Below, piece by piece: positions 4,212 to 23,865 of a stretch of DNA of 29,915 nucleotides (its first letter is position 1; each line of letters opens with the position of its first letter). Under the pieces are notes generated by a model. That model worked only from the letters and a program-made list of their open reading frames with translations, had not been told where the DNA came from and did no database searches. Origin of the DNA: Candidatus Thorarchaeota archaeon (GTDB lineage: Archaea > Asgardarchaeota > Thorarchaeia > Thorarchaeales > Thorarchaeaceae). The DNA lies in the NCBI GenBank assembly GCA_016839445.1, contig JAEOUG010000082.1, forward strand, positions 1-29,915. The letters are read 5' to 3'. The position numbers were made by a program, and so were the translations under genes.

Positions 4212-5780
4212 CTAAAGGTTGCGGAGCGTTGCGATGAGGGAGTGGAACCTCGACCTCGTGGAATCATGTACAGTCGCTGACGTGACCTCCACCCCTGCTG
4301 GCATCTCTCTGATCAATTGGGTGCTTATGAGCTGACCTGTGTACTGGGCGACGTTCATCCTTAGGAACAGGCTCGACCCCTCCTTGGAGAAGTAGGACTC
4401 GCATCTCGGCACACCCGCCTCGATACTGCCTCGAATTCTGGCAAGCTCTCTGTGGGGTCCTTCAAGGAATGCGATGATTTCGTCTCCAAGACCGAGGAGT
4501 TCTCCTGCAGGCATGTACTGGAGTGTGAACGCGCCCTCCCGGTGGAGTTTCCTAGAGCTGTTCTGCCCCTGAAAAGGAGTGACGCCTAGTTCTGACAGCA
4601 TCGTTTCTCGGGTACCGCTATCTGTGGGGAAGGCCCAACCAACGCCAAGGACAAGAGCATCGGTGTTTGCCAGATCTATGGTCTTCCGTGACCTGCGTTC
4701 TTCGTGCACAATCCAGTCCGACTCCCCTCCGGGCGATGGAGGCTTCCCCTTCAAGTCCACTGAAGTCCTCCATACTCCGTCCGCCCGGTCAAGGAGACCC
4801 AATCTCAGGGAGAGCCTCCTCTCACTGAGTACTGTGGCATCTTGTGAAACATCTGCATCCAGGGGAGTCAACCACATCTGTCCTCGAGCCAATCCCGAGT
4901 GCTGGAGGTGTAGACTCTCGGCGAGATGCCCCTGTGGTATCGTGGGGGGTCTTCTCTTGCTGGACATGACCAGAACCTGCTGCAGTCCAAGGCGTCTGAA
5001 GGAGGGGGTGAGTACTTCCCTTATGGCATACGACAGGGCGCGTAGTGTGAGACCTGGTGCTTTCCCTGTGCGAGGGGAGTACCTTGCCAGGTCTCCTAGG
5101 CGCGGCGAGTCGGCTCTTGCGAGCTTCTCGATTATTCCTCTGACCAGTGATGATATGGCCACATTCATGCCCTGGGACACCGCACCAACAATCATCTGAC
5201 CCAGCTGTGAAGGCTCTCCAGTCCTCCAGTCGTGGACTGCTTGGTAGACTGCCTGCAGCCACCATGGCTTTGTGCCAGTGACCTCCGAAACGGCGTACAG
5301 GGTCAGCATGGAGGATATCCAGCTGGGGCCGCTAATCTGGCTCCACTCTCTCTCCATGAGCCCTCCAGACACTATCCTTGCGAGGATGTGGCGCAAGGGT
5401 TCGTAGACTGCAGGAGGGATTCCTGCCGGGGTCAACAGATCAAGTTGGTCTAGCAGCGACCTGGCCCGTTTGAGTTCTCTCTCAGCTAATTCGAAGGGCC
5501 CAAGTGTGTCGGTGAGGACCCTGGCTGAGACCTTCCTCTTTGGGAGGGCTCGCAGACCTAAGCATGCATCCAGTTCGGCAGCACTGACGGTTTCACCAGT
5601 AGATAGGAAGTAGTCCAGTATGGCAGGGTCTGTCTTGATCTTGCGCATGAGACCCTTCAACGAGCTGCCTGACACGTCCCAACGCTCGATGAGGGAAGGG
5701 CTCCAGAGGTAATAAAGTATGCCTGAAACAGCCGGAATCCATGCACTTCCGTGACAGAAGATGGCTGAATTAGCGTTCAA
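4212..5780 (-). CDS. Large putative transcription regulator with tandem Lrp/AsnC-like (wHTH + RAM) modules; paralog of 21937-23589. True start probably GTG 5675, TTG 5660 or ATG 5648
   Basis: Two helix-turn-helix-like segments, each followed by the Lrp-type linker (LTPSFRRLGLQQVLV; SELGVTPFQGQNSSRKLHREGAFTLQYMPAGELLGL). Colinear similarity to the second copy. The ORF-track N-terminus overlaps a conserved non-coding motif. Confidence 0.55.
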   Translation of the reverse strand: MNANSAIFCHGSAWIPAVSGILYYLWSPSLIERWDVSGSSLKGLMRKIKTDPAILDYFLSTGETVSAAELDACLGLRALPKRKVSARVLTDTLGPFELAERELKRARSLLDQLDLLTPAGIPPAVYEPLRHILARIVSGGLMEREWSQISGPSWISSMLTLYAVSEVTGTKPWWLQAVYQAVHDWRTGEPSQLGQMIVGAVSQGMNVAISSLVRGIIEKLARADSPRLGDLARYSPRTGKAPGLTLRALSYAIREVLTPSFRRLGLQQVLVMSSKRRPPTIPQGHLAESLHLQHSGLARGQMWLTPLDADVSQDATVLSERRLSLRLGLLDRADGVWRTSVDLKGKPPSPGGESDWIVHEERRSRKTIDLANTDALVLGVGWAFPTDSGTRETMLSELGVTPFQGQNSSRKLHREGAFTLQYMPAGELLGLGDEIIAFLEGPHRELARIRGSIEAGVPRCESYFSKEGSSLFLRMNVAQYTGQLISTQLIREMPAGVEVTSATVHDSTRSRFHSLIATLRNL

Positions 5781-5942
5781 AGACTCGAAAAGAATCGAAA
5801 AAGCCTTTATAACATCTCAAATATGGTCGGAATTTCTATCAGATGTCTAAATCACCCTCTGAATCTTCTTACTTGTTTTCGGTGTTCTTGGGTAAGTTGA
5901 ACAATGAATTTGCCTCGTACTGAGTACAGGTGAAATGACAAG
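5741..5942 (+). promoter_or_regulatory. Duplicated cis-regulatory region, copy 1 (between regulator A and the recombination operon)
   Basis: Shares ATGCAyTTCyGTGAC, TGGTCGGAA, CTAAATC and TGGGTAA with 23637-23850 at a constant offset of 17,896, plus AGGTGAAAyGACAAG. Confidence 0.75.
5796..5812 (+). promoter_or_regulatory. Candidate BRE-TATA promoter (CGAAAAAGCCTTTATAA)
   Basis: Purine-rich BRE-like run followed by TTTATAA at 5806-5812, ~125 bp before the first operon gene; not conserved in copy 2. Confidence 0.45.
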
Positions 5943-6702
5943 TATGTCGTCGAGGCTTGCAGATGTTCTGGAGTCAGTCGTGGCTGATGACGCAGGTATC
6001 ATCGATTTGAGTAGGACCATGGAAATGGTCTATACGAACAGTGATCGGGCGGTCCTCTCAGCAGAACTCCTGTACTTCAGCGACTCGGAGCCTGCGTACA
6101 TGGAGATGAGAGTGGGGCTTAGGAGTGAGATACTCGTTGGATTCCCAACCTTCTTCTCCCTCACCGAGCGTCGTTTCCGTACTGCGGACATCCCATCACT
6201 TGTCCCATTGGTGGCAATCATTGCATCGAAGAAACGGCTGCAGGGAATCCACGACATACAGTTTGAGATCGATGAGCAGTCAACTCATGTGATCATCACG
6301 TTTGTCGGAAGAGCAGATCGCACTAAGTCCTGTCTCTCAGACTTGGCAAGCTCCATGAACCGGGTGATGGACCGCTGGAGCGGCTGGTCGGAGGTACTAC
6401 TCAGCATCCTGGACAGAGACCCTGTCCTAGGGGAGAGAATGACTGGCGTTGATTGGAGGGAGTTCTTGGCGGGTGAAGGTGGCTATGTCACGATGCCATG
6501 GTTCAGGCCAATGACGTATGCTGAGAGGGCATCAGCGCTCGAGTCCATAGTAACCGCCAGCCGAGCACTTCTGACTTCTTTCCTTTCACCTCATGAGATG
6601 AAGCACGACGAGGTCCAGAGTCTGCAGGCCTGGTTGTCCGCACTGGAACCTCAGTCGCGCGTCATTACAGCTGACCTAGAGCAAGTCACGGAGGTGGCAT
6701 GA
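5935..6702 (+). CDS. Hypothetical protein, first gene of operon (start may be ATG 5944)
   Basis: 255-aa ORF with SD AGGTGA; ATGA overlap with the next gene; no family recognised. Confidence 0.8.
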   Translation: MTSMSSRLADVLESVVADDAGIIDLSRTMEMVYTNSDRAVLSAELLYFSDSEPAYMEMRVGLRSEILVGFPTFFSLTERRFRTADIPSLVPLVAIIASKKRLQGIHDIQFEIDEQSTHVIITFVGRADRTKSCLSDLASSMNRVMDRWSGWSEVLLSILDRDPVLGERMTGVDWREFLAGEGGYVTMPWFRPMTYAERASALESIVTASRALLTSFLSPHEMKHDEVQSLQAWLSALEPQSRVITADLEQVTEVA

Positions 6703-7154
6703 TGTTAACACAGGAGTACGTATCGTGGGAGATAGGGTTGGTCTACGATGTCATGGATGAGGCTTGGCTGGCTGGTGCCAAGGCTGGCATCACACAAAGA
6801 GAGGGGCCAACATCTGACGAGGAATGGTTGGACTTCATTGAGAGCCTTAGAGTCATCCTGGATCGGATGCCGGAGGTGAAGGCTGCCGAGCCGGGTACTG
6901 CACCATCAGAGAGGTCTCTCTATGATGCACTTGGCGGCTATGTGAGTTTGACTGGCTGTCTTGGTATGGGATTTCTTTCGTTTCCTGTACCATTGATTCG
7001 GCAGGCCATGGTTCTCTCGTTATTTCCAGGCATGGATGTACGCGCAAGAGGCTCAGTGGTGAGCATCCCATATGGGGAGCTTCTGCGCTTCACCAGACTA
7101 GTCCCTATCAGAGGCCCACTGCAGGATGACCTCGGGAGGGTCTGCGATGACTGA
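6699..7154 (+). CDS. Hypothetical protein
   Basis: 151-aa ORF, SD GGAGGTGG, overlaps both neighbours. Confidence 0.75.
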   Translation: MMLTQEYVSWEIGLVYDVMDEAWLAGAKAGITQREGPTSDEEWLDFIESLRVILDRMPEVKAAEPGTAPSERSLYDALGGYVSLTGCLGMGFLSFPVPLIRQAMVLSLFPGMDVRARGSVVSIPYGELLRFTRLVPIRGPLQDDLGRVCDD

Positions 7155-8202
7155 CCTTGAGGCGGTTCCCGGAGTCGGCCCGGCGGCAGCGAAGAAGCTC
7201 AGAGAGGCATTCATCACAACCGCAGAACTTCTGAGTGTTCAGAATCCGGCTGAGTTACAGGAAAGGACCAAGCTGGGTGAGGGTACGGTATCCAAGATCA
7301 TCAAGAGCGCGAGGGACATGACTGGCAAGTTCGGCTTCCGGTCAGGTCTTGAGATAGAGGAGGAAATGCTTACGACCCCACGGCTCACCTCAGGGCTCCC
7401 CAGCCTTGACGAAGCGCTCTTTGGAGGCATCGAGGCAGGCTCCATCATGGAGTTCTATGGCAGTGCAAGAGGTGGGAAGACACAATGGTGTGCTCATCTC
7501 GCAGTTCGTGCACAACTCCCCGAGGATCAGGGGGGTCTCGCTGGTCGAGTCCTCTGGCTTGATACGGAGTCAAGCTTCAAACCTCATGTCATAAGAGCGA
7601 ATGCCGTACGATGGGGTCTGGACCCTGACGCTGCACTCGCCAACATCGGAAGGGCTCAGGTAGTGCTTAGCGGACAGATTGAGGAGATCTTCGAGACCAT
7701 TCCGCAGTTGTGTGCCGAGCAGGACTACAAGCTCGTGATCGTGGACTCGTTGACTGGTCTCTTCAGAGCCGAGTACACAGGACTTGACTCGTTGAGAATC
7801 CGACAGCAAGACATCAACAGACTTCTGAATCAGATGAGGCGAACTGGCACAGCAACTGATGCCATCTTCGCCTACACCAACCAAGTCATGGCCAAGATTG
7901 CAGTCTATGGTGGAAACCCGAACGCTCCTGTGGGCGGTCACATAGTGAGTCACGCATCCGACTACAGGTTCTACGTGAGGAAGGCCCTCAAAGAGAAGCG
8001 GAAGATAGACCTCCAGGACAATGCAGGCGTTCCAGAATTCTCGAAGGAGTTCGTACTTGGTTGGGGCGGATTCTATGAGGACTCCAAGGCATGCAAGCAA
8101 TCAGAAGCGAAGATACAGAAGTACTTCGATGAAAGGGGTTGGGGAATGAAGGAGAGAGAGGAGCCGGAGGAGGAGAGCGACTCAGAAGAAGCGGAGGAGT
8201 AG
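7147..8202 (+). CDS. radA: RadA/Rad51-family recombinase (divergent full-length paralog)
   Basis: N-terminal HhH (DLEAVPGVGPAAAKKL), polymerisation motif FRSG, Walker A GSARGGKT, LDTE, Walker B LVIVDS, FRAEY..RQQ, TNQV, GGHIVSH; acidic tail. Start moved to ATG 7147 (SD GGGAGGG). Confidence 0.9.
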   Translation: MTDLEAVPGVGPAAAKKLREAFITTAELLSVQNPAELQERTKLGEGTVSKIIKSARDMTGKFGFRSGLEIEEEMLTTPRLTSGLPSLDEALFGGIEAGSIMEFYGSARGGKTQWCAHLAVRAQLPEDQGGLAGRVLWLDTESSFKPHVIRANAVRWGLDPDAALANIGRAQVVLSGQIEEIFETIPQLCAEQDYKLVIVDSLTGLFRAEYTGLDSLRIRQQDINRLLNQMRRTGTATDAIFAYTNQVMAKIAVYGGNPNAPVGGHIVSHASDYRFYVRKALKEKRKIDLQDNAGVPEFSKEFVLGWGGFYEDSKACKQSEAKIQKYFDERGWGMKEREEPEEESDSEEAEE

Positions 8203-8212
8203 GTGGCAGAGC

Positions 8213-8653
8213 ATGAGTAAGACTAGAGGGATGATTAGGATATACAGATGCTCAAGGTGTCATAACGTAGGCTATTCTCGAGTGAGAGACCAGTCTGACG
8301 ACTCCATGTGCAGTCTGTGTTCCGCGACGATTACGCATTCGCCAAGTGCGATTTACGTCGACACGCCTGAAGAGGCGCAGCAACGGATGAAGAGCATGAT
8401 ACTACGGGCTGGACTCGAAAAGCCAGGAGTGAAGCGTGGTCTTGGTGTGAAGAAACGAGTGTTCAACATAGTCCTCTCACTTGTCGAAACCAACCGTGGT
8501 CGTCCTGTTTCACGGGAGCAGATTATGCAGGAGTGCAATGACGCAAAGATTGCCGATGACAAGGCCCAGAGTTTCCTTGAACAGCTGGAGGATGAGGGTC
8601 TCGTTATCAGTGACGGGAGTCTGATCACGGTTTCAGGAGGTGGTGTCACTTGA
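8213..8653 (+). CDS. Zn-ribbon + C-terminal winged-helix protein (DUF1922/DUF5817-like from memory)
   Basis: CSRC...CSLC followed by DTPEEAQQRM; C-terminal VSREQIMQEC...KAQSFLEQLEDEGLVI winged helix. Confidence 0.7.
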   Translation: MSKTRGMIRIYRCSRCHNVGYSRVRDQSDDSMCSLCSATITHSPSAIYVDTPEEAQQRMKSMILRAGLEKPGVKRGLGVKKRVFNIVLSLVETNRGRPVSREQIMQECNDAKIADDKAQSFLEQLEDEGLVISDGSLITVSGGGVT

Positions 8654-9240
8654 CCGCAGAAGCCGTTCAGTCAACACCACGAGCCTCAGTGATCAGTCTG
8701 GCCAATCTCCTCCAGAGGGACACTCCAAACAGGATAGCCATTGTTTCGACAGCCCTACCAGAGATAGACCCAGAGCTGTATGTCGTGACGAAGACAGAGT
8801 GGAAGAACCCAAGAGAGCCACTCCTTCATCAGCTTCCTCGGCTTCTCTCGAATCTGGAGGCTCTACGGGGCACACGGGGAGTACCATCCGAGGTGTATCT
8901 GGACAGCAACGATGGCATTGCTCTCTACTTGCCTACAGGAATACACGTGTCAGACATACCTATGGATCCAAAGAACGCCGTGCTGTTCCTGAAAGAAGTA
9001 ATCAGAGATACAATCGACTTCTACATCACAACAGTGAAGGATGTAGAGGCTCACTTCTGGAAGTTCGCCAAGAGGGAGGGATTCAGCAAGACGATTGTAG
9101 AGAAGATTGGCAGGAAAGAGGAGGGATTCCGATCTAGGTCCACCCTCTCTCGGTTCCATTCTCTCATGAGGCAGTACTTCTCCATTAAGTTCAGGATTCA
9201 TACCTCAGAGTCCTGCTTGAGGGTGGAGGGGCCGGTATGA
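8650..9240 (+). CDS. Hypothetical protein
   Basis: 196-aa ORF, TTG start in a TTGA overlap with SD GGAGGTGGTG; ATGA overlap with the helicase gene. Confidence 0.75.
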   Translation: MTAEAVQSTPRASVISLANLLQRDTPNRIAIVSTALPEIDPELYVVTKTEWKNPREPLLHQLPRLLSNLEALRGTRGVPSEVYLDSNDGIALYLPTGIHVSDIPMDPKNAVLFLKEVIRDTIDFYITTVKDVEAHFWKFAKREGFSKTIVEKIGRKEEGFRSRSTLSRFHSLMRQYFSIKFRIHTSESCLRVEGPV

Positions 9241-11207
9241 GCGCCGCCGCCCTTGATCCAATGGTGTGGTTTCCATACGAACCTAGGCCACATCAGGACA
9301 GGGCGGTGAAGTTTGCATCTCGGGTCTACTCTGAGAAGACTGTTGGTCTTCTGTCCGCTGACTGCGGCGTTGGAAAGACCATAGCAGTGCTCTCGGGGTA
9401 TTTGGCAGTACGAGCTAGAGACCCTTTCTCAAGGCTCCTGGTGCTCACACGCACACACTCGCAGTCTAAGGTCTTCGAAGAGGAGCTGACGGAGCTTCGA
9501 CTACATGATCCTGGAGAGGAGTGGCGCACAAACCTCACCGCCACTAGTATGGTGTCTCGAGTCCATGTGTGCCCCATGAAAGGACGCATGGAGCAGCTCA
9601 CAACGATGGGGTTCACGAAGCAGTGTGCGAAACTTGTCAAGACTGGCCAGTGCTCGTTCTACTGGAACTGTTACTCAAAGGGGAAGGGCGAAGTCCGTGT
9701 TCTTCCGAGGCCGTTCTTCAGAGAACAGGTGGAGTCTCTTCTGGCCACGCAGATTGTGACACGGGAGGCTGCTGAGAGGCTCTCGGAGTCTACGGGTTTC
9801 TGCCCCTACGAGGTCCTTCGATGGTGTGCAAAGAGCAGCCGCGTCCTAATCGGCCCCTATGACTACGTGTTCCGAGAACGAGTCAGGGACGCTCTTCTCT
9901 CCTCGGTTGGGTGCAATCTAGGCGAAGTCGACATACTAGTGGACGAGGCTCACAACCTCCCCGATCATGTTCTGAACTCGGAGGCCGCTGAGCTGAGCGG
10001 CAGAGACCTACTCTGGCTGAGGAAAAACAAGAAGCTCATCGTTCGTGACACTGGCGTCAAGTGGCTTGAGGACACTGTAGACTTCCTGTGGGAAACCGTG
10101 ATGCTCAGTCTCGACGGACTAAGGGATGAGAAGCGGCTTAACACGTGGGATGTATTCCCGCGTTTCGCAGACCCTTCACAGCTGAGCCAGCTTATGGAGT
10201 TCGACAGCGCAGTTGAGGGGATGGAGGACGCAATCCCAGTTGATACTCCTTTGGACCGTCTAGTGGCCTTCCTGTACTCGGGCCACAGGTCTGCCCAAAG
10301 CGAGGATTGGCTGGTCACGATTGAGCTCCTCGGAGCAGGCGAGGAAAGGTCTGAGGTCGAGGTCTCAAACACCCTACTGCGGATACGCCCGTTGAATGCA
10401 GCTGGTCTGATAGCTCCTGTCCTCAGGAGTGCGAGGTCTGCTATGGTCATGTCAGGGACACTGCGACCGACGGAGCACTACGGCAGGATGCTCGGCATAT
10501 CAAGCGCAGAGAAGGAGGACCTGCTAAGCCCCTACCCAAAGGGGACTCGGCTCATTCTCGTTGACAAGGAGGTTTCGACGAAGTACACTCTCCGAGGGCC
10601 ACTTATGTGGAGAAGGATTGCAACCCGCATCGAGACTGCTCTGCGTAGCCTGCCGCCCAACAAAAGCGCGCTAGTGTCGTTTCCGAGCTACGCGATAATG
10701 CAGGAAATCCTCAGCTACGGAATCGATTGCGGATTCAGGGAGATGCTTGTCGAGGACAGAACAATCAGAATCGAGGACGTTGAGGAGTCCGTTCTTCTCA
10801 CTCCTCATGCAATCTTCTGTGTTTACGGTGGGAAGATCAGTGAGGGAATAGACCTTGTCGAGAATGGCTCCAGCATGATCGACCTGATAATTGGCACGGG
10901 AATCCCGTTCTCGCCACCGAGCAGTCATCAGAAAGCCCTTCAGGATTTCTATGACAGAAGGTACGGCGACAAGTCTGGATACTACTACTCAGCAGTATTG
11001 CCGTCGATTCGCCAGGTCGTACAACTCGCAGGGAGGCTAAGGAGGTCACCAGAGGACAGAGGCGTTGTCGTGCTGCTTGACAAGCGATTCCTGAGATACA
11101 TGAATGCGTTTGGAGACGATGCCGCCTCAGACCTGTGGCCATTTGCCGGCGACCAAGAGCTGGCTGATGCCATTGAGCTCTTTGTCAGGGAGGTTGCAGC
11201 TCAATGA
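9237..11207 (+). CDS. xpd: XPD/Rad3/DinG-family Fe-S cluster SF2 DNA helicase
   Basis: Q motif FPYEPRPHQ, Walker A ADCGVGKT, four Fe-S cysteines (VCPM, QCAK, QCSFY, FCPYE), DEAHNL, SGTL, FPSY, GKISEGID, QLAGRLRRSPEDRGVVVLLDKRF. Confidence 0.92.
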   Translation: MSAAALDPMVWFPYEPRPHQDRAVKFASRVYSEKTVGLLSADCGVGKTIAVLSGYLAVRARDPFSRLLVLTRTHSQSKVFEEELTELRLHDPGEEWRTNLTATSMVSRVHVCPMKGRMEQLTTMGFTKQCAKLVKTGQCSFYWNCYSKGKGEVRVLPRPFFREQVESLLATQIVTREAAERLSESTGFCPYEVLRWCAKSSRVLIGPYDYVFRERVRDALLSSVGCNLGEVDILVDEAHNLPDHVLNSEAAELSGRDLLWLRKNKKLIVRDTGVKWLEDTVDFLWETVMLSLDGLRDEKRLNTWDVFPRFADPSQLSQLMEFDSAVEGMEDAIPVDTPLDRLVAFLYSGHRSAQSEDWLVTIELLGAGEERSEVEVSNTLLRIRPLNAAGLIAPVLRSARSAMVMSGTLRPTEHYGRMLGISSAEKEDLLSPYPKGTRLILVDKEVSTKYTLRGPLMWRRIATRIETALRSLPPNKSALVSFPSYAIMQEILSYGIDCGFREMLVEDRTIRIEDVEESVLLTPHAIFCVYGGKISEGIDLVENGSSMIDLIIGTGIPFSPPSSHQKALQDFYDRRYGDKSGYYYSAVLPSIRQVVQLAGRLRRSPEDRGVVVLLDKRFLRYMNAFGDDAASDLWPFAGDQELADAIELFVREVAAQ

Positions 11208-11797
11208 AACGCACGACACACTGGCTCCTTCTTTGGGTCTTGCTCGTGTCAGTCGCCGCAAGCTCCCTTGTGGTCGTTGTAACGGCTGAAACGCTGGCTT
11301 TGCGAATCATAGCATTGGCGACCATAGCTGTGGTCGGGATGTGCAGTTACGTTCTCTTGTTCAGAAAGTCTACTCCCCAGATCTTCTGGGACGAGGAGAT
11401 GGGAATCTTGTTATTGTTTGGAGTCTGGAACGTTGAAGCGAGAGCAGCTCGTCTTCTTAGGAGTGTTCCTATTGGCATAGACGTTTCCTACTCGGCGAAG
11501 AAAGTAATGCAGGCGATGAGTGAGAGGCTGCCCAAGAGTGGAAACTGCAGGTTGGACTTCGTGGTCCACCGGCCTGTGGGGAACAGCTCGACCCGCGCAG
11601 GGTTCATAGTAGCTCGATCCAAGTTCATCGGATTGCTCAGCAAGAAGCGAGTCAACGACCTCTGTGATTCTGTGTTTCAGGACGCCACAGTATTGGAGAG
11701 CGCGATGCGGTCATCGTATCCGCACACTCCGGTAGAGAGAGGTGAGCTAGAGGACGTGCGAATGATCATGACTGGGGGCACTAGCGTTGTTGTCTGA
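11204..11797 (+). CDS. Membrane protein (two N-terminal TM helices + soluble alpha/beta domain)
   Basis: Hydrophobic residues ~7-27 and ~30-54; ATGA overlap; SD GGAGGT. Confidence 0.78.
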   Translation: MKRTTHWLLLWVLLVSVAASSLVVVVTAETLALRIIALATIAVVGMCSYVLLFRKSTPQIFWDEEMGILLLFGVWNVEARAARLLRSVPIGIDVSYSAKKVMQAMSERLPKSGNCRLDFVVHRPVGNSSTRAGFIVARSKFIGLLSKKRVNDLCDSVFQDATVLESAMRSSYPHTPVERGELEDVRMIMTGGTSVVV

Positions 11798-12065
11798 AGG
11801 GCAAGAGGTGATATCGCTGCCGATTCCTCCAAGAGTCAAGATCGGTGCCGTCACAGCATTCCTCGGCAACGGCCATGGATATCGTTGGACTACAATCTCC
11901 TTCACTCCAGTTAGGATGGAGCTGGGCAGATCCTCAAAGAGCGAATTGCCGGACCTCGTGATAGTTGGGAGGACGCTCTACTCGAATGGAAACTCGCAGT
12001 CTATTCATGAGCGTCTGGGAATGGTGCTAGATCATCTTGACAGGCAAGCTGGAGGTGGAATCTGA
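11787..12065 (+). CDS. Small hypothetical protein
   Basis: 92-aa ORF that exactly fills the gap between coupled genes; its 3' end carries the SD GGAGGTGG for the next gene. Confidence 0.65.
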   Translation: MLSEGQEVISLPIPPRVKIGAVTAFLGNGHGYRWTTISFTPVRMELGRSSKSELPDLVIVGRTLYSNGNSQSIHERLGMVLDHLDRQAGGGI

Positions 12066-14387: not shown

Positions 14388-16579
14388 TGAGCGCCGTAGT
14401 GAGTGTACCGGACAACGTCACACGAATCTTGGAGGAGGTAGGAGTTACTCCCCGAGGTATTCAGATACAGGCTATCGATGCTGGTCTGTTACATGGTGAG
14501 AGTATTCTGGTCACTTCCCCCACAGGCTCAGGGAAGACGCTCATCGGAGAGATGGGTCTTCTTAGGGCGGTCTTGGCTGGTCGTCGAGGTCTCTACTTGG
14601 TTCCTCTGAGAGCACTAGCGCACCAAGTTGCGAGGTCTCTGAAGGATCGATATGACGGAAGAGCGGTCAGAATCGGAGTGACTACCGGAGACCTCCACCT
14701 CTCTGGTGAAGAGATGGCTGGTTTCGACGTAGTGGTGACTACCTATGAACGAGCAGACTCCTTACTGAGACATCAGGCTAGTTGGCTCTCTGAGATTGGC
14801 ACGGTGGTCATTGATGAGATTCAGACAATGTCGGAGGGGCGGAGAGGTGCAAGACTTGAGAGCGTCATCCTCCGTATCAAGCGAATGATAGGAGATGTGC
14901 AGCTGATTTCGCTCTCAGCAACGGTGGACCAGCCGCAGGAACTTGCATCGTGGCTGGACGCGAAGCTGGTAGCTTCCACGGAACGCCCTGTACCTCTTGT
15001 CTATAAGATGTTCACCACCTCAAATCGGCATCTTACGGTTCGAACTGCCACGATGGCCGTTGTGCAGTCAGAGGGTCAAGTAATCGTGTTTCACAGGACT
15101 CGGAGAGAAGCGGAGGCAGAAGCCGAGAGGCTCTCTGTCCATGTGGGGCGCCAACTAGGAACCTCTGAGAGAGACCTGCTTGACAGAGAGTTGGACTCCT
15201 TCTCTCAAAGAGAGACTACCTTGAGCGGGCAGCTTCGCAAGCTTCTGCACCACGGTGTCGCCTTCCACCATGCTGGAATCCCGTCTGGCCCGAGATGCTT
15301 GGTTGAGGACCTCTTCAGGAGGGGACTGATCCGAGTAGTCTGCGCCACCACAACGCTTGCCTCCGGAATGCATCTTCCTGCCAGGACGGTAGTACTCGCT
15401 AGCACACGTTCTCCTGAGAACCACAGGGCCCTTCTCTCAGCAAACTCTGTTCATCAGATGCTTGGCAGAGCTGGTCGGCCCGGTTACGACAGCGCCGGGT
15501 TCGGTGTTGTTCTGGTGGGCAGCAGGGGAGAATCTGATGTGGCGAAGAAGCTGTACTTTCATGTATCTGGAGAAGATGGACGGGAAAAGCTCTCTCCTCG
15601 GTACGATTCTGTGTCCAGCGCCTTGGGCTCTTCCGACCACCTTACTGAGCAGGCTCTTGTTCTGCTCGATCTCTTAGGAGAGGCGACACCTGAAGAGATC
15701 GAGGATGCACTCTTAGATTCTTACTACGTGCACTCAGGCGCGAGACGGTCAAGAAGCCCAATGCGACTGCTCATTGTGGAGTCAGTTAGCGCTGAAACCG
15801 CTATCGAACGCCATGGTCTGAGTGACACAATCAGGGCAGGGAGGGAGGGAGTGCTCGGGAAGGCTGGCATTAGAGAGTCATCTCAAGAGGTGATTGGTGG
15901 AATAGTTTCTGGCTTTCAGGGGGGTCATTTCACCTGCAGATTCTCTGCTCGCCTCAATACCAACGGCACAATAGAGGGGGCTAGTTGCTCCTGTGGCAGT
16001 CCGATAGAGGAGGGCATTCTATGTGTGCATCTAGTAGCACTTGGCTTGCAGGCCGTGCGCGACCCTCAAGCAAGTTCACTGGCTGACTATGTCATTCCAC
16101 TTGCTCTGGATGAACATGCCCCACTGGGAACTCTGACTCGACTTGGCCTAGTAGAGGCAGGGCGAGAGAAACCGTACCAAATCTCAAGGCTTGGCCGATT
16201 GGTGACCCGGCTGTACCTGAGCATCTCAACGGCGAGAGAGCTTCTCGCATGTATACCGTTCACAGATGATCCAGTTGGCTTGATGTCCCTGCTCCGTCAC
16301 TTGCTAGCCATTGAGTCTGATCTCAGACTTGATGAGTCGTTTGACCAATTCATAGGGGCCGTAGCCACGACCACAACGCCAGTCCGGGAGGTCGCCGAGT
16401 CATGTGGAATTCCTCTCGGAGATGCATTTGGCCTTCTGGACCGGTCTCGGTGGATGCTTCATGCTATCAGCGTTTTGTCGGAGCATGGTGGCCTTGAGAG
16501 ATTGAAGGACATCAGCGGAAGCCTACTGAATGCGGTTAATTCCAGACTTGAAAGGAGGTCTGTAGATGGAGATAGTTGA
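14387..16579 (+). CDS. hel308: Hel308/Ski2-like SF2 helicase with inserted SWIM zinc finger
   Basis: SPTGSGKT, VPLRALA, TTYER, DEIQ, SAT, RPVPL, FHHAG, ATTTLASGMHLPA, QMLGRAGRPGYD; SCSCGSPIEEGILCVH (CxCx9CxH). Confidence 0.88.
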   Translation: MSAVVSVPDNVTRILEEVGVTPRGIQIQAIDAGLLHGESILVTSPTGSGKTLIGEMGLLRAVLAGRRGLYLVPLRALAHQVARSLKDRYDGRAVRIGVTTGDLHLSGEEMAGFDVVVTTYERADSLLRHQASWLSEIGTVVIDEIQTMSEGRRGARLESVILRIKRMIGDVQLISLSATVDQPQELASWLDAKLVASTERPVPLVYKMFTTSNRHLTVRTATMAVVQSEGQVIVFHRTRREAEAEAERLSVHVGRQLGTSERDLLDRELDSFSQRETTLSGQLRKLLHHGVAFHHAGIPSGPRCLVEDLFRRGLIRVVCATTTLASGMHLPARTVVLASTRSPENHRALLSANSVHQMLGRAGRPGYDSAGFGVVLVGSRGESDVAKKLYFHVSGEDGREKLSPRYDSVSSALGSSDHLTEQALVLLDLLGEATPEEIEDALLDSYYVHSGARRSRSPMRLLIVESVSAETAIERHGLSDTIRAGREGVLGKAGIRESSQEVIGGIVSGFQGGHFTCRFSARLNTNGTIEGASCSCGSPIEEGILCVHLVALGLQAVRDPQASSLADYVIPLALDEHAPLGTLTRLGLVEAGREKPYQISRLGRLVTRLYLSISTARELLACIPFTDDPVGLMSLLRHLLAIESDLRLDESFDQFIGAVATTTTPVREVAESCGIPLGDAFGLLDRSRWMLHAISVLSEHGGLERLKDISGSLLNAVNSRLERRSVDGDS

Positions 16580-18173
16580 ACACGAAGTAACAGAGTCAGC
16601 AGGAACGGAAGAGAACGAGATTGAGAGGCACCTTAAGCGAAATGACTATCGAGTGTGCCAGTACCCCAATGGGTTGACCATGGGTCTCAGACTCCAGAGT
16701 GTCCCCGGCTCTCGCGGCGTAAACGTCGACGTAGTCCACATTCTGGACATGCGCATAGCTAGGTTCGGTAGAACTTCCTTGGCTGCTCAGTCGGCGGTTC
16801 TTGAGACCGTGTGCAAAGACACTCGACTCCTGCTTGCTGACGTGGGACTTGGTTCTCTCTTTGAAAGCCAGGAGATTGTCACCCCGTTCGGCAAGAGTGT
16901 ACTCCGTGTCCTTCGGCTACCAAAGGCCTCTCAGGCATCTCTCATCTACGAAACCCGGAACGTCTATGGTGTGTATTCAGATGCAAGCGTGCCGCCCTCA
17001 ACCCTGGAGTGGTTGACTGAATCCTCCAAGATGATTAGAGTAAGTGAACTTGAGCTCTTACACAGGAGTGATTCAAGATCCTCGCTTCAGGAGGTGAAGA
17101 AGGCTATTGACTCCGGCAAGTGGAAAGAGCTTGAGAAGGGCCACAGGGCAGCATGGTGGAGTCTCCTTCCACTTATCACCACAGTCGCATCTTTCGTGGG
17201 ATTCATGGCGTCAATAGTCACTTCCTCAGGCACTCTGCTAATCCCGTTGATGACGCTCGCTGTGTCAGTGCCCCTTCTGGCCTGGTTAGCAAGGACCGCG
17301 ACAGCGGCGTTGGACGCGTTCAACGAGGCTCTAGTAACCGAGAAGGCCCACCTAGAACGGGCTGGCGATGTCAATAGAATCAGAGAGGCTGTCCACGCCG
17401 GCGAAGAGAAGCTCCGACTCGTGGGGAACTTGAACTTCATTGTCACTCCCCTGATGGGTGGCGCGGGTGTAGCAATCGAGTCTGGTGATGTTGCTTCTGC
17501 CGCATCTTCTCTCTCCGCAATCCTAGATGAGTGCGTTGTACACTCTCCTGGGCTTGAGGGTGAGAAGGGGTTGGTTGGTGATCTGGGGCTTAAGAAGTTC
17601 ATCGAGCTCTTTCTCTACTTGGGCCTGGATCTCTCCGAAGATGAAGAGATGGAACTAAGTCTTGCTTATGCAGCCCTCACAGGTCACAAGTCAGCGCCGC
17701 TGGCTCAACACGAGATTATCCATCACATGGGAGTCTTGAACAATGCATTGTTTGATTGCGGAATCCTCAGTGCCGACGTCAAGTCCTCCATTGACGACAT
17801 GATGAATCTTCGGGCCGCGGGAGGATATGTCATAGAAACAGTGCGTGATGAAGCATCTGAAGAGATTGCTGAGATTCCCGAAGGTGACGAAGAGGGCTCT
17901 TCAGGAATAGATGATGAAAGTCTAGCAGAGATGAGTTCGGCGGCTTTGAAAGCCAGCGGGGATGAAGATGTCGTCGAAGCAGCAGATGAGGATGACTCGG
18001 AGCCGATTCTTGTTGCAGAAACAGTCCAGACAACCCTTGATGCGAGTGACGATCTCCCGAAGGCCAGTCCTATCGAACACGAGACGGCCGAGGGAAGAGT
18101 CGCAAAGGCAGTTGAGGAGCGCTCGGAGAGTTCCTCATCGAAGAAGAAGGAGCGCGAGGCCATTGAAGCTTGA
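16566..18173 (+). CDS. Membrane protein with central TM hairpin and acidic low-complexity C-terminal tail
   Basis: WWSLLPLITTVASFVGFMASIV / LLIPLMTLAVSVPLLAWLA; D/E-rich final ~110 aa; SD AGGAGGT. Confidence 0.8.
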   Translation: MEIVEHEVTESAGTEENEIERHLKRNDYRVCQYPNGLTMGLRLQSVPGSRGVNVDVVHILDMRIARFGRTSLAAQSAVLETVCKDTRLLLADVGLGSLFESQEIVTPFGKSVLRVLRLPKASQASLIYETRNVYGVYSDASVPPSTLEWLTESSKMIRVSELELLHRSDSRSSLQEVKKAIDSGKWKELEKGHRAAWWSLLPLITTVASFVGFMASIVTSSGTLLIPLMTLAVSVPLLAWLARTATAALDAFNEALVTEKAHLERAGDVNRIREAVHAGEEKLRLVGNLNFIVTPLMGGAGVAIESGDVASAASSLSAILDECVVHSPGLEGEKGLVGDLGLKKFIELFLYLGLDLSEDEEMELSLAYAALTGHKSAPLAQHEIIHHMGVLNNALFDCGILSADVKSSIDDMMNLRAAGGYVIETVRDEASEEIAEIPEGDEEGSSGIDDESLAEMSSAALKASGDEDVVEAADEDDSEPILVAETVQTTLDASDDLPKASPIEHETAEGRVAKAVEERSESSSSKKKEREAIEA

Positions 18174-18846
18174 GTCACTCTTGGGAGAGAGCAACTTTCT
18201 CCACATCTGGGGTCAGGCTGGAACTGGAAAAACGCTTCTAGCAACAGCGCTGGCTGCACAAGCGAGCCGATTGGGGATTGTGGAGTATATCAACACAGAC
18301 GGCAAGAGAAGCTTCATACGCGCTCTCAAGAGACACACCAGCTCTTTTGGCGGGCTTACCTCAAGAATCCGGGTGACGTTGGCAGACGGCGCATCTGAAG
18401 CCTTTGGCGCAGTTAGGTCCGTCGCTTCATCGGTTTCGCCCGAGACCAGCATGGTGGTCGTCGACCCGATTACTCGCGTCCTCGACATGTCGACAGTTGA
18501 TGATGTGATGTGGGGCCAAGAAATGATGGAGGAGGTTCTTCCATCACTCGTTGCCCTCGCCGAAGGAGGAATCCGCGTTCTGGTAGTTAGTGAAGTCCGA
18601 AACACAGACGTCGGGCTTCTACCTGTGATGTATGACTCCGTGAATCGCTGGAAGCCCCGGAACTTGAGAGCAACCAGAGGTCCAGGAAGGCATTCTACGC
18701 TCATGCTACCTACCCCTGATGGAGAAGAGGTACTTGCGCTGATGAGGGTAGATGACAGAGGCTGTCTTTGGCTAGACTATCCTGCCGGGGCGCACATTCT
18801 GAGTGAGGGTGAGCAATCATGTTTGGAAAGACAATCATGCGTGTGA
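18163..18846 (+). CDS. RadB-like short RecA-family ATPase
   Basis: Walker A GQAGTGKT, YINTD, Walker B VVVDP, VSEVR. Start reassigned to TTG 18163, overlapping the upstream stop; the ORF-track extension from 17962 shadows the upstream gene. Confidence 0.8.
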   Translation: MKLESLLGESNFLHIWGQAGTGKTLLATALAAQASRLGIVEYINTDGKRSFIRALKRHTSSFGGLTSRIRVTLADGASEAFGAVRSVASSVSPETSMVVVDPITRVLDMSTVDDVMWGQEMMEEVLPSLVALAEGGIRVLVVSEVRNTDVGLLPVMYDSVNRWKPRNLRATRGPGRHSTLMLPTPDGEEVLALMRVDDRGCLWLDYPAGAHILSEGEQSCLERQSCV

Positions 18847-19787
18847 TATCTTATGCAGTGGCAGGGGCAATAGCAGTCCTCCTGGGAGGTAGGTTGCTCA
18901 GCTCTGTTGCGTCGGTTGTTTTGGCCTGGAGACTCGGCAATCCGCTTCCACTTGCTGTTGTGACGGTTGGAACAGTGCTCCTCGTCTTCCTATCGCGAGG
19001 CGAGGCCACGACACTGCCACTTATGATTCTGAACATCATCTCATGGATTGCGTCAGCGTACATGTCTGTCGTCGTCTTCTTTGTGGCCTTGCCCTTTGGC
19101 CTAATCCTTGGTTTCACAGCGATGGCTGTAAGCCTCATTGCGGTCAGCGTAGTCAAGGACACCAGAGGCCTTGGAGGACGAGTCCGCAGCATGATCGAGC
19201 GCACAGCGATTCTTGGCGCCTCAATCCCTCTCCTCGGCCATGAGATGGATGACTCGGGCATGTTGTCATCTTTGGGCCGGCGTAACTTCGTCGCGTTTCT
19301 CGTGTCCCGAAATGAACGTGGACGGATTCTGCAGTTGATGCGGGAACGGCCTCTGCTACCAATATCCCTCTCAGGATACGAGGAAACCGACATCCTCTTT
19401 GTTCGAGATGATGGTGCAAATGCCGCCCAGATTGAGGTGCTTCTCAGAGATGCCGGCGTGGACGGCCTTGAGAAACTCTCATCCTTCCATACTAGTGCAG
19501 TCCTTAACCTTCCACTCATAGAGAAACGAGAGGAGGTCCATACACCCTCCGAGTATGTCTTCTGTCATGATGTTGCCACCGTAGACAGGCTCGTTGAGGT
19601 CTGGCCTAAGAGAATGACCCTGCACCCCAGTAGGTCTGGAGTAATAGCGATAGCGAGTGAAGACGCCGTTCCAGGATTTGAGACCCAGCCAATACCGAGA
19701 GGCCTACGGTCGACGGTCGTCATGGAGAGAAACGTTTCATTGCTTGAAGCCGGAGGGAAAGATGTTGCCGCAGAGCCTGCCGCTTAA
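18819..19787 (+). CDS. Polytopic membrane protein (~4 N-terminal TM helices + soluble C-domain)
   Basis: Hydrophobic first ~112 aa; SD GAGGGTGA; overlaps both neighbours. Confidence 0.78.
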   Translation: MFGKTIMRVISYAVAGAIAVLLGGRLLSSVASVVLAWRLGNPLPLAVVTVGTVLLVFLSRGEATTLPLMILNIISWIASAYMSVVVFFVALPFGLILGFTAMAVSLIAVSVVKDTRGLGGRVRSMIERTAILGASIPLLGHEMDDSGMLSSLGRRNFVAFLVSRNERGRILQLMRERPLLPISLSGYEETDILFVRDDGANAAQIEVLLRDAGVDGLEKLSSFHTSAVLNLPLIEKREEVHTPSEYVFCHDVATVDRLVEVWPKRMTLHPSRSGVIAIASEDAVPGFETQPIPRGLRSTVVMERNVSLLEAGGKDVAAEPAA

Positions 19788-20484
19788 CAGTGTGGAGTTT
19801 GAAGACAGACCTTTCGTCCAACTACGTCCCAGACAGCTTGACCAGACGCTTGGAAGAGTCCTTCTTCCCTCACAGGTCAGTCTGGTTCACGGTCCTGATC
19901 GGGCTCCCCTCACTCTCGTGGCCCATGCCGTCACTGCTGGTGTGGTATCTGGCGGAGGTAGATGTCTCTTCTTGGACTCTGGCGGTAACTACAACCCGAA
20001 CCTCATTCGTGCCATGCTTGGCGAAAGCGACCCTGAGTCTGTCGGGCGAATCATTGTCGGCCCCGTCTTTGGCCTCACAGACCTCACCGAGGCTCTGAAG
20101 ACAGTGAAGCCATCTGATGGAGTTCTGGTCGTGGTGGTGGACAGTCTGACCGGAGTTCTCAACCTCACTGGTGACTCTGGTTCTAAGGAGCGACAAAGGG
20201 ACTTGTTTGGAGCCCTTGAGGAACTCAGGAGGACTGTCAACAGTCACGGAGTCCATGCTCTCCTGACAGACCACTCGAGTAATGATTGGAGGACCGGCGA
20301 GAGACGCGTAGTGGGAGGTAACGTCTTGCAGCACAACATTGACACATCTGTCTACTGCTCCTGGATCCGGAAGATAGAGGACGGTATCCTCCTCACGGTA
20401 GAACGCAGTCCTGTCTTTCCTCCCCCTACGTCGGTTGCCGTGAAGCTTGGCGTTCGAGGACCAAGGTCTCCAAACAGGAGGTAG
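19762..20484 (+). CDS. RadB/Rad51-paralog-like protein with inactivated Walker A
   Basis: LDQTLG...VSLVHGPDRAPLT (GKT lost), LFLDSGGNYNP, Walker B VVVVDS, ERQRDL, VVGGNVLQH. Start reassigned to ATG 19762 (SD GGAGGG). Confidence 0.78.
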   Translation: MLPQSLPLNSVEFEDRPFVQLRPRQLDQTLGRVLLPSQVSLVHGPDRAPLTLVAHAVTAGVVSGGGRCLFLDSGGNYNPNLIRAMLGESDPESVGRIIVGPVFGLTDLTEALKTVKPSDGVLVVVVDSLTGVLNLTGDSGSKERQRDLFGALEELRRTVNSHGVHALLTDHSSNDWRTGERRVVGGNVLQHNIDTSVYCSWIRKIEDGILLTVERSPVFPPPTSVAVKLGVRGPRSPNRR

Positions 20485-20489
20485 CAGAG

Positions 20490-21479
20490 CTGGGTGTCAA
20501 GAACTGGGGGAAGATGATTCCATGGCGATGGGCAAAGGTGGAGGAGCTCGAGCCAAGGATCTTGGCCTTTGACAGCCCCAATTACCTCTCTCGCAGGCTC
20601 TCTGTCGTACGTCAACAGCGCTTCGATAGAGTCCCACTAACTCATGCCCACCTGTTCCTGGCGACGGTGCTTTCTTGCTTACGCAATCATGTCCTTCCAG
20701 TCTTTGTCTTTGATGGCCCTCCGGAACATCTCAAGAGGAAGGCAAACCCGAGCCTTATCCAGAATTCCGAGAGACTCTATCGAAGATGGAGGGCTGATTC
20801 ATTGGCGGGCTCGCCAGACATTGATCTCTCCTGCTTTGCGAGTCCGGCGGTGAGGCTCTACTTCGGCCTCTGCCACATCAAGGATCTTTGCTCTGCGTCA
20901 GGTATGCCAACCGTGCTGGCACCATCTGAAGCCGAGATGTCAGCTGCTGTGTTGAGTCGCGAGGGTAAAGTCGGGTCAGTGGTATCAAATGACGCAGATG
21001 CCCTGCTCTTCGGTGCTTCTCATGTGACCCGGAGCGTCAGGTTCTCAAAAGGGGAGATTGAGCGTGTCCTCATGAGAGACTTGCAGCGCAGACTAGAGCT
21101 TGACCTGGAGCAGATGAGGGATCTTGCGATCATCTGTGGCTGTGACTTTCATCGAGAGGGCATTCGAGGAATGGGGCCTCATAAGGGCGCAATAGCCCTC
21201 AAGAGACACGGCGGATTAGAGCCTCTTCTCAGAGCCATGGGAGTGACGCCTAGCGAGATTGAGAAGTACATGAAGGCGAGGGACGTGTTTGACGAGGGCC
21301 ACTATATCAAGCTTGGAGTCGAAAACCTTGTGCTCAAGCCGCCTGTGTCTGCTCGTGTGACAGAGCTGCTCCAACCGGCCCTTGGCCAAGAGACTGCTGA
21401 GAAGAGGTCCATGGAGCTGCTACGCCTCTGGAAGGACTTCGGGAGAGTTCAGATGACCCTCGAGGGGTGGATTGCATGA
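20490..21479 (+). CDS. fen: FEN1/XPG-family structure-specific nuclease with PCNA-interacting (PIP) box; probable CTG start (first ATG at 20514)
   Basis: (M)GVKNW N-terminus, ILAFD, PVFVFDGPPEHLK, APSEAE, SNDADALLFG, helix-hairpin GCDF..GIRGMGP, C-terminal QMTLEGWI. Confidence 0.88.
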   Translation: MGVKNWGKMIPWRWAKVEELEPRILAFDSPNYLSRRLSVVRQQRFDRVPLTHAHLFLATVLSCLRNHVLPVFVFDGPPEHLKRKANPSLIQNSERLYRRWRADSLAGSPDIDLSCFASPAVRLYFGLCHIKDLCSASGMPTVLAPSEAEMSAAVLSREGKVGSVVSNDADALLFGASHVTRSVRFSKGEIERVLMRDLQRRLELDLEQMRDLAIICGCDFHREGIRGMGPHKGAIALKRHGGLEPLLRAMGVTPSEIEKYMKARDVFDEGHYIKLGVENLVLKPPVSARVTELLQPALGQETAEKRSMELLRLWKDFGRVQMTLEGWIA

Positions 21480-21936
21480 TTCTGAAGAGGTGTTGAAGAT
21501 GAGTAGTGACGCAGGTTCTGATGTGCTTCGTATTGAGAACAGACGTGAGATCATAAGCGATGTTATCGAGTTTGCCCGGAGAGTGAGGATTGCACTATCA
21601 CTTGAGAAGGCAGGTGAGATGGAAGTGATAGTGCACGATCGTTCGGCTCAACTCTGTGCACTGGTGGGGCAGGGCGGCTTTGTACTTCTAGGACTCAAGA
21701 GCGAACTGGGTTGCAGAGGAGACCCTGAGATCTCGTTGAGAGTGGACAGGGACTGTGAGAATCCAGACGTCTACAGGGTCGAGGGCATTGCGATATCCCT
21801 CGAGACTGGCCCAGAGGAGGTTTCTGTCAGTCAAGTCAGCAATTGGATAAGGGAAAACGGTATTGATGAATGTGAGAACATCACCATTACGGAAGAGGGC
21901 GGTCACCTACGCATATTGATTGATGTCCTAACTTAA
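21472..21936 (+). CDS. Hypothetical acidic protein, last gene of operon
   Basis: 154-aa ORF overlapping the fen stop; its stop abuts the convergent gene. Confidence 0.7.
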   Translation: MHDSEEVLKMSSDAGSDVLRIENRREIISDVIEFARRVRIALSLEKAGEMEVIVHDRSAQLCALVGQGGFVLLGLKSELGCRGDPEISLRVDRDCENPDVYRVEGIAISLETGPEEVSVSQVSNWIRENGIDECENITITEEGGHLRILIDVLT

Positions 21937-23589: not shown

Positions 23590-23628
23590 TCCTCTCTCAA
23601 GTCTCCCTAGAATGTGTTGAGAATGACT

Positions 23629-23850
23629 TCACAGATATGCATTTCTGTGACGGTTGAGGACTTGAAAGAGTCTATAAGAGCTTCAAAACGGCTAAAAGAG
23701 ATTCAAAACTTCTATTTTGTGGTCGGAAATACTAAGAATCTACTAAATCGATTTATCAATTCCCATTCGGCTAATCGCCCTCCGTGGGTAAACTTACGTA
23801 GTTCTCCGGCAGGTCATACGCATGTGGCACCCCGAAGGTGAAACGACAAG
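23629..23850 (+). promoter_or_regulatory. Duplicated cis-regulatory region, copy 2, beginning with a 22-bp near-perfect palindrome
   Basis: TCACAGATATGCATTTCTGTGA at 23629-23650; motifs shared with 5741-5942; A-tracts phased at ~10 bp. Confidence 0.75.
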
Positions 23851-23865
23851 GAAGAGGAAAGTGAC

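Follow-up and report, generated by a model that had tools for sequence, protein, structure and literature searches.

Dimers of the Lrp type read 15-bp palindromic boxes. In Sulfolobus solfataricus, the control region of the Ss-LrpB gene itself contains three regularly spaced 15-bp boxes of the consensus TTGCAAAATTTGCAA, and approximately 100 bp of DNA is wrapped by the protein, as reported (PMC1802622). A second system of relevance here is the ultraviolet (UV)/DNA-damage regulon of the Sulfolobales, for which the literature describes ups pili, Ced DNA import, TFB3 and a conserved promoter hexanucleotide (PMC5817253, PMC6101591, PMC11823120). The subject of this report is a putative promoter/operator module of ~160 bp on contig JAEOUG010000082.1 of a Candidatus Thorarchaeota archaeon (assembly GCA_016839445.1), the entire 29,915 bp of which were analysed and are referred to as the window (contig C46 of genome G000; assembly 2.9 Mb, 89.8% complete). 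The module precedes a paralogous recombination operon (opA), the operon of a giant surface protein (opB) and, in degenerate form, a gene pair encoding a GH3-family adenylating enzyme and a ThiF/E1-like adenylyltransferase (GH3-ThiF). Judged from sequence, it ties these units together and is a lineage-specific signature across Thorarchaeota, so that a first reading of the DNA letters, which had taken it for a shared regulon signature (the original prediction), appears essentially right.

The module resembles the reported Ss-LrpB system in that its first box is 15 bp long with a 5-5-5 arrangement and carries a TTGCA half-site identical to the Ss-LrpB half-site. It likewise occupies divergent control DNA next to the gene of its own candidate regulator, and more conserved putative contacts follow over 100-150 bp, spaced from this box by distances close to whole helical repeats. 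Unlike the Ss-LrpB sites, the module box lacks symmetry (TTGCA ... GGACC/GTGAC), and none of the other blocks repeats it. The candidate regulators also differ from Ss-LrpB, being ~490-540 amino acids (aa) long, with two different Lrp-like modules and a 200-aa N-terminal domain, and having no match to an Lrp/AsnC sequence model; their binding is predicted, and the targets would be very large operons. With the Sulfolobales UV regulon, as reported, the module shares the coupling of a surface-structure operon to DNA transfer and recombination genes through a short promoter signature. The phylum, motif, factor (a TFB paralog in the Sulfolobales) and genes are different, and the damage induction that is experimental there is a possibility here. 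An operator-defined regulon is familiar in kind, whereas the particulars are undescribed: a search of open-access papers and preprints, including the review PMC12993045, gave no account of the cluster, the module or the protein family.

Almost nothing is known, to our knowledge, of gene regulation in Asgard archaea, and we know of no organism bearing this cluster that is in culture. What is offered here is a regulon defined by sequence, with a model that locates its putative promoters in 31 of the 86 genomes of the family, together with a concrete candidate regulator family for which there is a confident structure model. The lineage-specific versions of the module also form a natural series in which operator and regulator co-evolution may be followed.

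Copies of the module in the window

Both major control regions are stretches of divergent intergenic DNA, with a minus-strand gene of the P family (P0001 or P0002) on the left and an operon on the right. Copy A of the module (5727..5894, plus strand) precedes opA and copy B (23626..23789, plus strand) precedes opB. All five motif pairs on which the original prediction was built are present at the positions given for them, each on the plus strand. Box 1 reads ATGCA-CTTCC-GTGAC in copy A (15 bp, 5-5-5; 5741..5755, listed as ATGCACTTCCGTGAC at 5741) and ATGCA-TTTCT-GTGAC in copy B (23637..23651, listed as ATGCATTTCTGTGAC at 23637). Block 2, TGGTCGGAA, occupies 5824..5832 and 23720..23728, while block 3 (CTAAATC; 5847..5853 and 23743..23749) and block 4 (TGGGTAA; 5889..5895 and 23785..23791) are identical in the two copies at the same offset. 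The offset of these first four pairs is exactly 17,896 bp, as had been claimed, and that of the fifth pair is 17,908, reflecting a 12-nt shift. The fifth pair consists of start-proximal 15-mers, AGGTGAAATGACAAG (5928..5942) and AGGTGAAACGACAAG (23836..23850), which agree at 14 of 15 positions and occur nowhere else in the genome. In copy A, this 15-mer combines a Shine-Dalgarno-like GGTGA with the ATG (5935) of the first opA gene; in copy B, ACG replaces the ATG and the 15-mer ends 16 nt before a TTG start at 23866. The 15-mers ATGCAYTTCYGTGAC and AGGTGAAAYGACAAG each have exactly two occurrences in the 2.9-Mb assembly, both of them here.

Each copy has the same layout, in which the 15-bp box is followed by ~50 bp rich in A and T with TATA-like stretches at its end, then block 2, a leader of 100-140 nt, and a GGTGA-type ribosome-binding site with its start codon. 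The TATA-like stretches before block 2 of copy A are TTTATAAC (5806-5813) and AAATAT (5818-5823). In this genome, the distances from box 1 to the other three blocks are 83, 106 and 148 bp, or 7.9, 10.1 and 14.1 helical turns, which is suggestive of blocks 2-4 lying on one face of the DNA with box 1, though the motif starts from which these distances are counted are arbitrary. Box 1 is situated 66-93 nt upstream of the divergent P0001 start in copy A, and 75 nt upstream of the P0002 start codon (23562) in copy B. Together with positions 23628-23636, box 1 of copy B also forms a 24-nt near-palindrome, TTCACAGATATGCATTTCTGTGAC (23628-23651), the left half of which has no counterpart in copy A.

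The similarity between copies A and B is real and well above chance. The 71 identities over 130 nt from position 5741 that had been counted by hand were reproduced exactly, and 85 of 155 positions are identical over 5741-5895. When compared with 300 dinucleotide-preserving shuffles (mean 61.7, standard deviation 2.1, largest 70 identities per 160 nt), the best gapless window of 160 nt, with 87 identities, stands at z = 12. Against 300 cross-genome comparisons of upstream A with upstream B (mean 63.9, standard deviation 3.2), the value of 87 was reached once. A simple +1/-1 gapless score makes the pair less striking, and marginal, since its score of 15 was reached by 1.3% of 300 cross-genome controls. 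The flanking coding DNA at the same offsets is identical at 72 of 300 positions on each side, as expected by chance, and the similarity ends at the intergenic borders. It is confined to intergenic DNA, and as the adjoining paralogous proteins are only 23% identical, neutral DNA would have been randomised. Among the sequencing runs listed for the locus none is of RNA. Contigs from four DNA runs, examined over 5000-24900, are uninformative: they are short and near-identical with no variant within the blocks, and cover the second region patchily.

The original prediction had recognised a pair of such regions, to which a third and degenerate copy must be added. Copy C (4051..4183, minus strand) precedes the GH3 gene and was detected by R1, a sequence-only model constructed from 23 aligned copies of the module. 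R1 finds three matches in G000, all within the window. Copies A and B (E 4.5e-13 and 1.6e-13) belong to the training set and match by construction, whereas copy C, which does not, matches over 4051-4158 with an E of 3.4e-4 per genome. Two earlier profiles had already ranked it third in the whole genome, with E values (8.5 and 0.44) short of significance. Copy C contains a box-1-like AGCATATTCGTGTAC at 4183-4169 and CGGA at 4096-4093; the spacing from the first letter of box 1 to that of CGGA, 87 nt, is common to all three copies. The P0001 gene sits between the GH3-side and opA-side copies, both in this genome and in genome G008.

Distribution of the module

Ten copies aligned within a subclade of the window's genus share a TGCA-N5-G[GT]AC box and a TCGGr motif ~83 nt downstream. 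The profile built from them located untrained copies at the expected place before opA or opB in other genomes, as well as inverted copies facing GH3. In the alignment of 23 copies, box 1 is the best-conserved part, with the 15-bp consensus tTGCA-N5-GgaCC; its TGCA never varies, and the G at column 27 hardly does. Within the CGG core of block 2, G is nearly invariant (at least 90% of the 23 copies) and C is the majority letter. AT-rich TATA-like stretches occur between box 1 and block 2 in all 23 copies. Of the motifs noted originally, conservation across genomes is limited to box 1 and the CGG of block 2; CTAAATC, TGGGTAA and the start-proximal 15-mer are common to the two G000 copies alone. 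With a profile of just the two window copies, no further copy had been detected in the genome or before 29 loci of P0002 homologs. This had first suggested that the motifs are not conserved, a view overturned by the 10- and 23-copy profiles.

At E <= 0.01, R1 matches 24 of the 28 genomes of the genus, with 1-11 copies in each. A match lies directly upstream of the first opB gene, in the right orientation, in 19 of the 24 genus genomes that have this gene, and in 9 of the 14 such genomes that contributed no trained copy. The corresponding figures are 11 of 20 for the first gene of opA and 10 of 19 for both first genes. The module thereby recurs above chance before the same non-homologous operons, both within and across genomes, as a regulon-defining operator would. 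The coupling of the recombination and surface-protein operons by a shared signature under selection, as originally proposed, is borne out by these relatives. Family-wide, at E <= 0.001, matches were found in 31 of 86 genomes, including 22 of 27 in genus g1, 5 of 17 in genus g12, where they lie before opA, and one in each of three further genera. The same search returned no match in 11 genera, which serves as a control of specificity.

Copies are always directed towards the downstream gene and stand back to back between GH3 and opA in several genomes; every copy in the fetched loci lies 100-320 nt upstream of the next co-directional open reading frame (ORF), where one is present. Among 20 further genus copies that were fetched, three stand before the A2-RadA start of opA, two before GH3, two before proteins of ~950 aa and one before a metallophosphatase; four, from four genomes, stand before a tetratricopeptide repeat (TPR) protein behind a 60-aa ORF. 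The remainder precede proteins of unknown family or a contig end. The module-preceded TPR unit consists of a 60-67-aa ORF followed by a TPR-repeat protein of 166-179 aa (loci L175, L182, L185 and L188). The module-preceded proteins of ~950 aa, from two genomes, have several sigma-70-region-4/helix-turn-helix-like motifs.

The element was also approached by comparing ~450 nt upstream of opA and opB within each of 29 genomes against cross-genome controls. The two regions resemble each other at z > 4.5 in eight genomes (G000, G008, G079, G077, G076, G026, G003 and G033), and the sequences of the shared blocks differ between genera, before the same operons. When the reverse complement of upstream A was compared with upstream B, a score (32) was obtained in G003 only, in keeping with copies placed back to back. 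Other genera likewise have the module in front of GH3.

Genome G079 of genus g15 has six copies in which a block of 20 nt and, 83 nt downstream, another of 14 nt are both invariant, and between which the DNA has diverged; invariant blocks separated by diverged spacers argue for selection on the sites rather than for a young repeat. They are found before opA and opB, before a GH3 gene and a GH3 remnant that adjoins a divergent P-like gene, and before genes of unknown function. Block 2 of G000 resembles the g15 block 2, ATATGGTGGAGC, which lies 83 nt after the g15 box 1. In G008 (genus g4), five genomic occurrences of a 21-nt block 1 were counted, against none in the controls. Two stand before opA and opB and one before GH3; the other two precede a HerA-like gene of 1041 aa and an operon that contains PCNA- and primase-small-subunit-like genes. 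A tblastn search of the G000 assembly for the additional regulon members of g4 and g15 (PCNA-, primase- and HerA-like and small proteins) found none at E <= 1e-3, and its positive control worked.

Several details of G008 may be added. The module-preceded operon of contig C16 (L145, 2947-5999) encodes a weak RPA3/Ten1-like OB-fold protein, a PCNA paralog and the primase-small-subunit-like protein, and the HerA-like (DUF87) protein is encoded on contig C79 (L146, 3306-6431). Between the P-like genes and the copies are extra ORFs, namely a 484-aa leucine-rich-repeat protein (L058, 4646-6100) and a 124-aa ORF (L059, 4216-4590), such that the module in G008 adjoins the operon and not the regulator gene.

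A proposed regulon and its candidate regulators

The explanation regarded as probable is that a directional promoter/operator module of ~160 bp defines a small Thorarchaeota regulon, for which a product of P0001 or P0002 is the most likely factor. The module would comprise, in order, the 5-5-5 box of 15 bp (ATGCA-YTTCY-GTGAC), ~50 bp of AT-rich DNA leading to a TATA-like stretch, block 2, and a leader of ~100-140 nt. Block 2 would lie at or just upstream of the probable transcription start. Such a layout would be expected of an archaeal promoter that has its operator upstream and a further site at the core promoter. With the module before opA, opB and, in degenerate form, GH3-ThiF, all three would be switched together, possibly in response to DNA damage or a small-molecule effector.

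The genes most likely to encode the factor are the adjacent, divergent P0001 and P0002. P0001 (4212..5675, minus strand) probably starts at GTG 5675 or ATG 5648, as inferred from alignment with the P0002 family, within an ORF that is open to 5780; P0002 (21937..23562, minus strand) starts at ATG 23562 in alignment with closer homologs. The two are paralogs with 23% identity (E 1e-10), and no family of Pfam, NCBIfam or PADLOC matches either of them. Few proteins make up the P0002 family: a library of 1.8 billion proteins contains 76 representatives. Closer homologs at the protein level are 79%, 57% and ~50% identical to P0002. Metagenome contigs scanned for closer relatives, once with P0002 alone and once with a 7-sequence alignment, gave no confirmed locus. 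A P-like gene divergently adjoins a module copy in G000 (twice) and in G079.

A confident AlphaFold2 model of P0002 was obtained from 56 sequences, with a predicted local distance difference test score (pLDDT) of 91.3 and a predicted template modelling score (pTM) of 0.92. In this model, a helical domain without a clear match (residues 1-205) is followed by two tandem modules, each a winged helix with a ferredoxin-like domain, as in Lrp/AsnC proteins. Residues 210-541 align with the siroheme decarboxylase NirDL (4czc) with a Foldseek E of 9.8e-6 and a VIA Z of 10.2 over 261 residues (root-mean-square deviation 5.5). Residues 377-530 align with whole Lrp/AsnC regulators (2dbb, 8q90, 2e7w, 1i1g, 2cg4 and others) at Z 4.6-5.6 over 133-146 residues, where a Z of ~5 is weak when taken alone. 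The model thus places P0002 among Lrp/AsnC-like folds, and P0001 is assigned to them by its sequence homology to P0002. P0002 shares with the NirDL and AhbA-AhbB siroheme decarboxylases (PDB 4czc, 4ch7, 4czd) the presence of two tandem Lrp/AsnC-like modules per chain. Unlike NirDL, an enzyme of the haem pathway, to which P0002 is 8-11% identical, it has 200 N-terminal residues that are without counterpart, and the P genes are located beside operator-like boxes in a DNA-repair and surface-protein cluster. Both predicted helix-turn-helix units have basic third helices, as read from the sequence.

P0001 and P0002 are accordingly the best candidates for regulators of the module, with DNA binding predicted from the fold. 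With two different Lrp/AsnC-like winged-helix and effector-domain modules in one chain, P0002 would constitute a built-in pseudo-dimer, and an asymmetric 15-bp box such as TTGCA-N5-GGACC would be expected of it. As box 1 is 66-93 bp away from the P0001 and P0002 start codons, the factor would also autoregulate these genes.

Side observations on the P genes concern their descent. P0002 is more similar to homologs in genus g16 (L006-L008), with full-length identities of 32-33%, than to homologs in its own genus, which are 640-720 aa long and 24-28% identical, and a P0001-like second paralog beside opA was seen only in this genome and in G008. This kinship and distribution suggest either an old duplication followed by losses or a lateral replacement of regulator genes.

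A number of observations weigh against the proposed regulon and its candidate factor. The pairwise A/B similarity does not rise above controls in 21 of the 29 genomes compared, and no R1 match lies upstream in 5 of the 24 genus genomes with opB and 9 of the 20 with opA. In g4, the box, TTGCA-N5-GTAAC, points in the opposite direction to the operon. Two AT-rich stretches are candidates for the TATA box, which leaves its position ambiguous. In the 23-copy alignment, blocks 3 and 4 and the start-proximal 15-mer are common only to the two copies of G000, and such sharing within one genome could stem from sequence exchange between copies rather than from independent constraint. As to the factor, no helix-turn-helix or AsnC model matches P0001 or P0002 (Pfam E <= 0.01, NCBIfam E <= 0.001), and the best structural match of P0002 is an enzyme and not a regulator. 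Moreover, the aligned putative recognition (third) helices of P0001 and P0002 differ, yet both copies carry the same box.

A broader and unlikely extension of the proposal would make this an inducible “DNA-transaction” regulon that unites a recombination machine, a giant adhesin-like surface protein and the GH3/E1-like pair under a single-chain double-Lrp regulator, with private codes in each genus. The RadA, XPD, SWIM-Hel308, RadB-like and FEN1 paralogs would then form a dedicated second machine, joined in some lineages by PCNA/primase-like and HerA-like proteins. The regulator would read the asymmetric 15-bp box, wrap ~150 bp of promoter DNA and co-diversify with its box between genera. The whole may be pictured as an Asgard counterpart of the Ups/Ced community DNA-exchange response of the Sulfolobales.

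Alternative explanations

It is conceivable, if quite improbable, that the blocks act at the level of RNA, in a shared 5' leader that binds a protein or small RNA or is structured, and that the operons are coupled post-transcriptionally; box 1 alone would then be a DNA element, or part of the divergent gene's leader. Blocks 2-4 and the Shine-Dalgarno-proximal 15-mer lie downstream of a TATA-like stretch and would be transcribed, both differences between the two boxes 1 are C/T transitions, and the TTCCG of box 1 is complementary to the CGGAA of block 2, with a similar pairing in g4 that includes two G-U pairs. The g15 blocks 1 and 2, however, are not mutually complementary, and both TATA-like stretches come after box 1, which is conserved best. 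An Rfam 15 scan of both strands of the whole window gave no match at E <= 1, and four folds of leaders and box 1-block 2 stretches had z values of -1.24, +1.90, +1.11 and -0.57 against 200 shuffles each, giving no signal of stability. An action in RNA is less improbable for blocks 3 and 4 and the start-proximal 15-mer, whose sharing is confined to G000. Marginally less probable still is that the module constitutes a special core promoter read by a dedicated TFB or TBP paralog, instead of by P0001 or P0002, in analogy with the UV response of the Sulfolobales (TFB3). In Sulfolobus acidocaldarius, the ups and ced genes are reported to be under a short promoter motif and TFB3 (PMC5817253, PMC6101591). 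The genes in question here (RadA, helicases, FEN1, PCNA/primase-like, HerA-like and surface proteins) resemble a DNA-damage or DNA-exchange response, block 2 directly flanks a TATA-like stretch, and the copies are strictly directional. Nevertheless, a Pfam search revealed no TFB or TBP gene in the window, and the ~65 bp by which box 1 precedes the nearer TATA-like stretch are too many for a TFB recognition element (BRE). From genus to genus, the block sequences also diverge at a far higher rate than is usual for contacts of basal factors.

The remaining explanations deny the module a regulatory function, and both fare worse. A non-functional segmental duplication of a paralog gene with its intergenic region, kept alike by gene conversion, is a remote prospect, despite several features in keeping with it. 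Each copy adjoins one paralog in the same orientation, and with the P0002 start aligned at 23562 and that of P0001 at 5675 or 5648, the start codons are also in register with the 17,896-bp offset (23562 - 17896 = 5666). In addition, blocks 3 and 4 and the 15-mer are confined to the copies of this genome, and its copy A is nearer to its copy B than to orthologous copies. What such a remnant would leave poorly explained is that identity takes the form of short exact blocks at fixed spacing, without a conversion tract and with flanks at chance, that the module precedes the same operons in genomes with one or no adjacent paralog, and that the six g15 copies retain two invariant blocks between diverged spacers. 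Least probable of all, to the point of being nearly discounted, is a mobile element, in which the copies would be ends or relics of a miniature inverted-repeat transposable element (MITE), or attachment-site direct repeats around an 18-kb insert. Direct repeats do flank the 17.9-kb opA segment and relatives have several copies per genome, but neither Pfam nor NCBIfam revealed an integrase, transposase or recombinase family in the window. A long exact core and terminal inverted repeats are both lacking, and no notable inverted repeat was found at the copies; similarity is block-wise and gene order around the copies is maintained across genera. Copies in the fetched loci also keep their distance of 100-320 nt before a co-directional ORF, where one is present. 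The proposed directional operator module is the explanation retained here.

Genomic setting and conservation

The opA operon (5935..21936, plus strand) consists of 16 co-directional genes, ten of whose proteins have no family match in Pfam or NCBIfam. Those identified with these databases, all on the plus strand, are a RadA paralog (7126-8202), an XPD/Rad3-like helicase (9237-11207), a Hel308-like helicase (14387-16579), two RadB-like ATPases (17962-18846 and 19657-20484) and a FEN1-like nuclease (20514-21479). RadA is the sole opA protein above the NCBIfam cut-off; it scores 185.7 bits, compared with 314.9 bits for the RadA encoded elsewhere in G000 (C43:14191-14904), and the XPG_I domain of the FEN1-like protein scores 71.8 bits, compared with 91.4 bits for the other copy (C133:6378-6659). 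As RadA and FEN1 of opA are thus second and more divergent copies, opA looks like a dedicated paralogous recombination machine. PADLOC returned only generic helicase and E1 similarities in the window (the XPD-like protein to type IV DinG, a helicase to HamB, and others) and no defence system.

The first gene of opB (23866-24465, plus strand) starts at TTG 23866 and encodes a protein of 199 aa, placed by a Pfam scan of opB and by synteny. It is followed by the gene for the giant surface protein, which runs on the plus strand from 24462 to the end of the window (29915; >1818 aa) and in which Pfam recognises Big_1, macroglobulin MG4, filamin and prenyltransferase-like toroid domains. Downstream of copy C on the minus strand are the GH3-family adenylating enzyme (2409-3953) and the ThiF/E1-like adenylyltransferase (1455-2357), both assigned with Pfam and NCBIfam.

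Among the 87 genomes of the order, a match was found to the first gene of opB in 62, to the first gene of opA in 54 and to the P0002 family in 60; P0001-like matches were found in 24 and are mostly weak. Mapping by tblastn in five other genomes gave the order GH3, opA (all 16 genes in sequence), a P-like gene (in most) and opB.

Variations on this arrangement were also observed. On contig C25 of genome G033 (loci L124-L126), the first gene of opA, A1, is detached together with a second copy of A2 and stands beside a P-like gene ~10 kb away, whereas the remainder of opA, from A2 onward, directly abuts opB; both of the separated starts carry their own copy of the module. A detached A1 is found in some genomes of the window's genus. 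In genome G031, the homolog of the first opA gene (C362:479-1207) contains one in-frame TGA.

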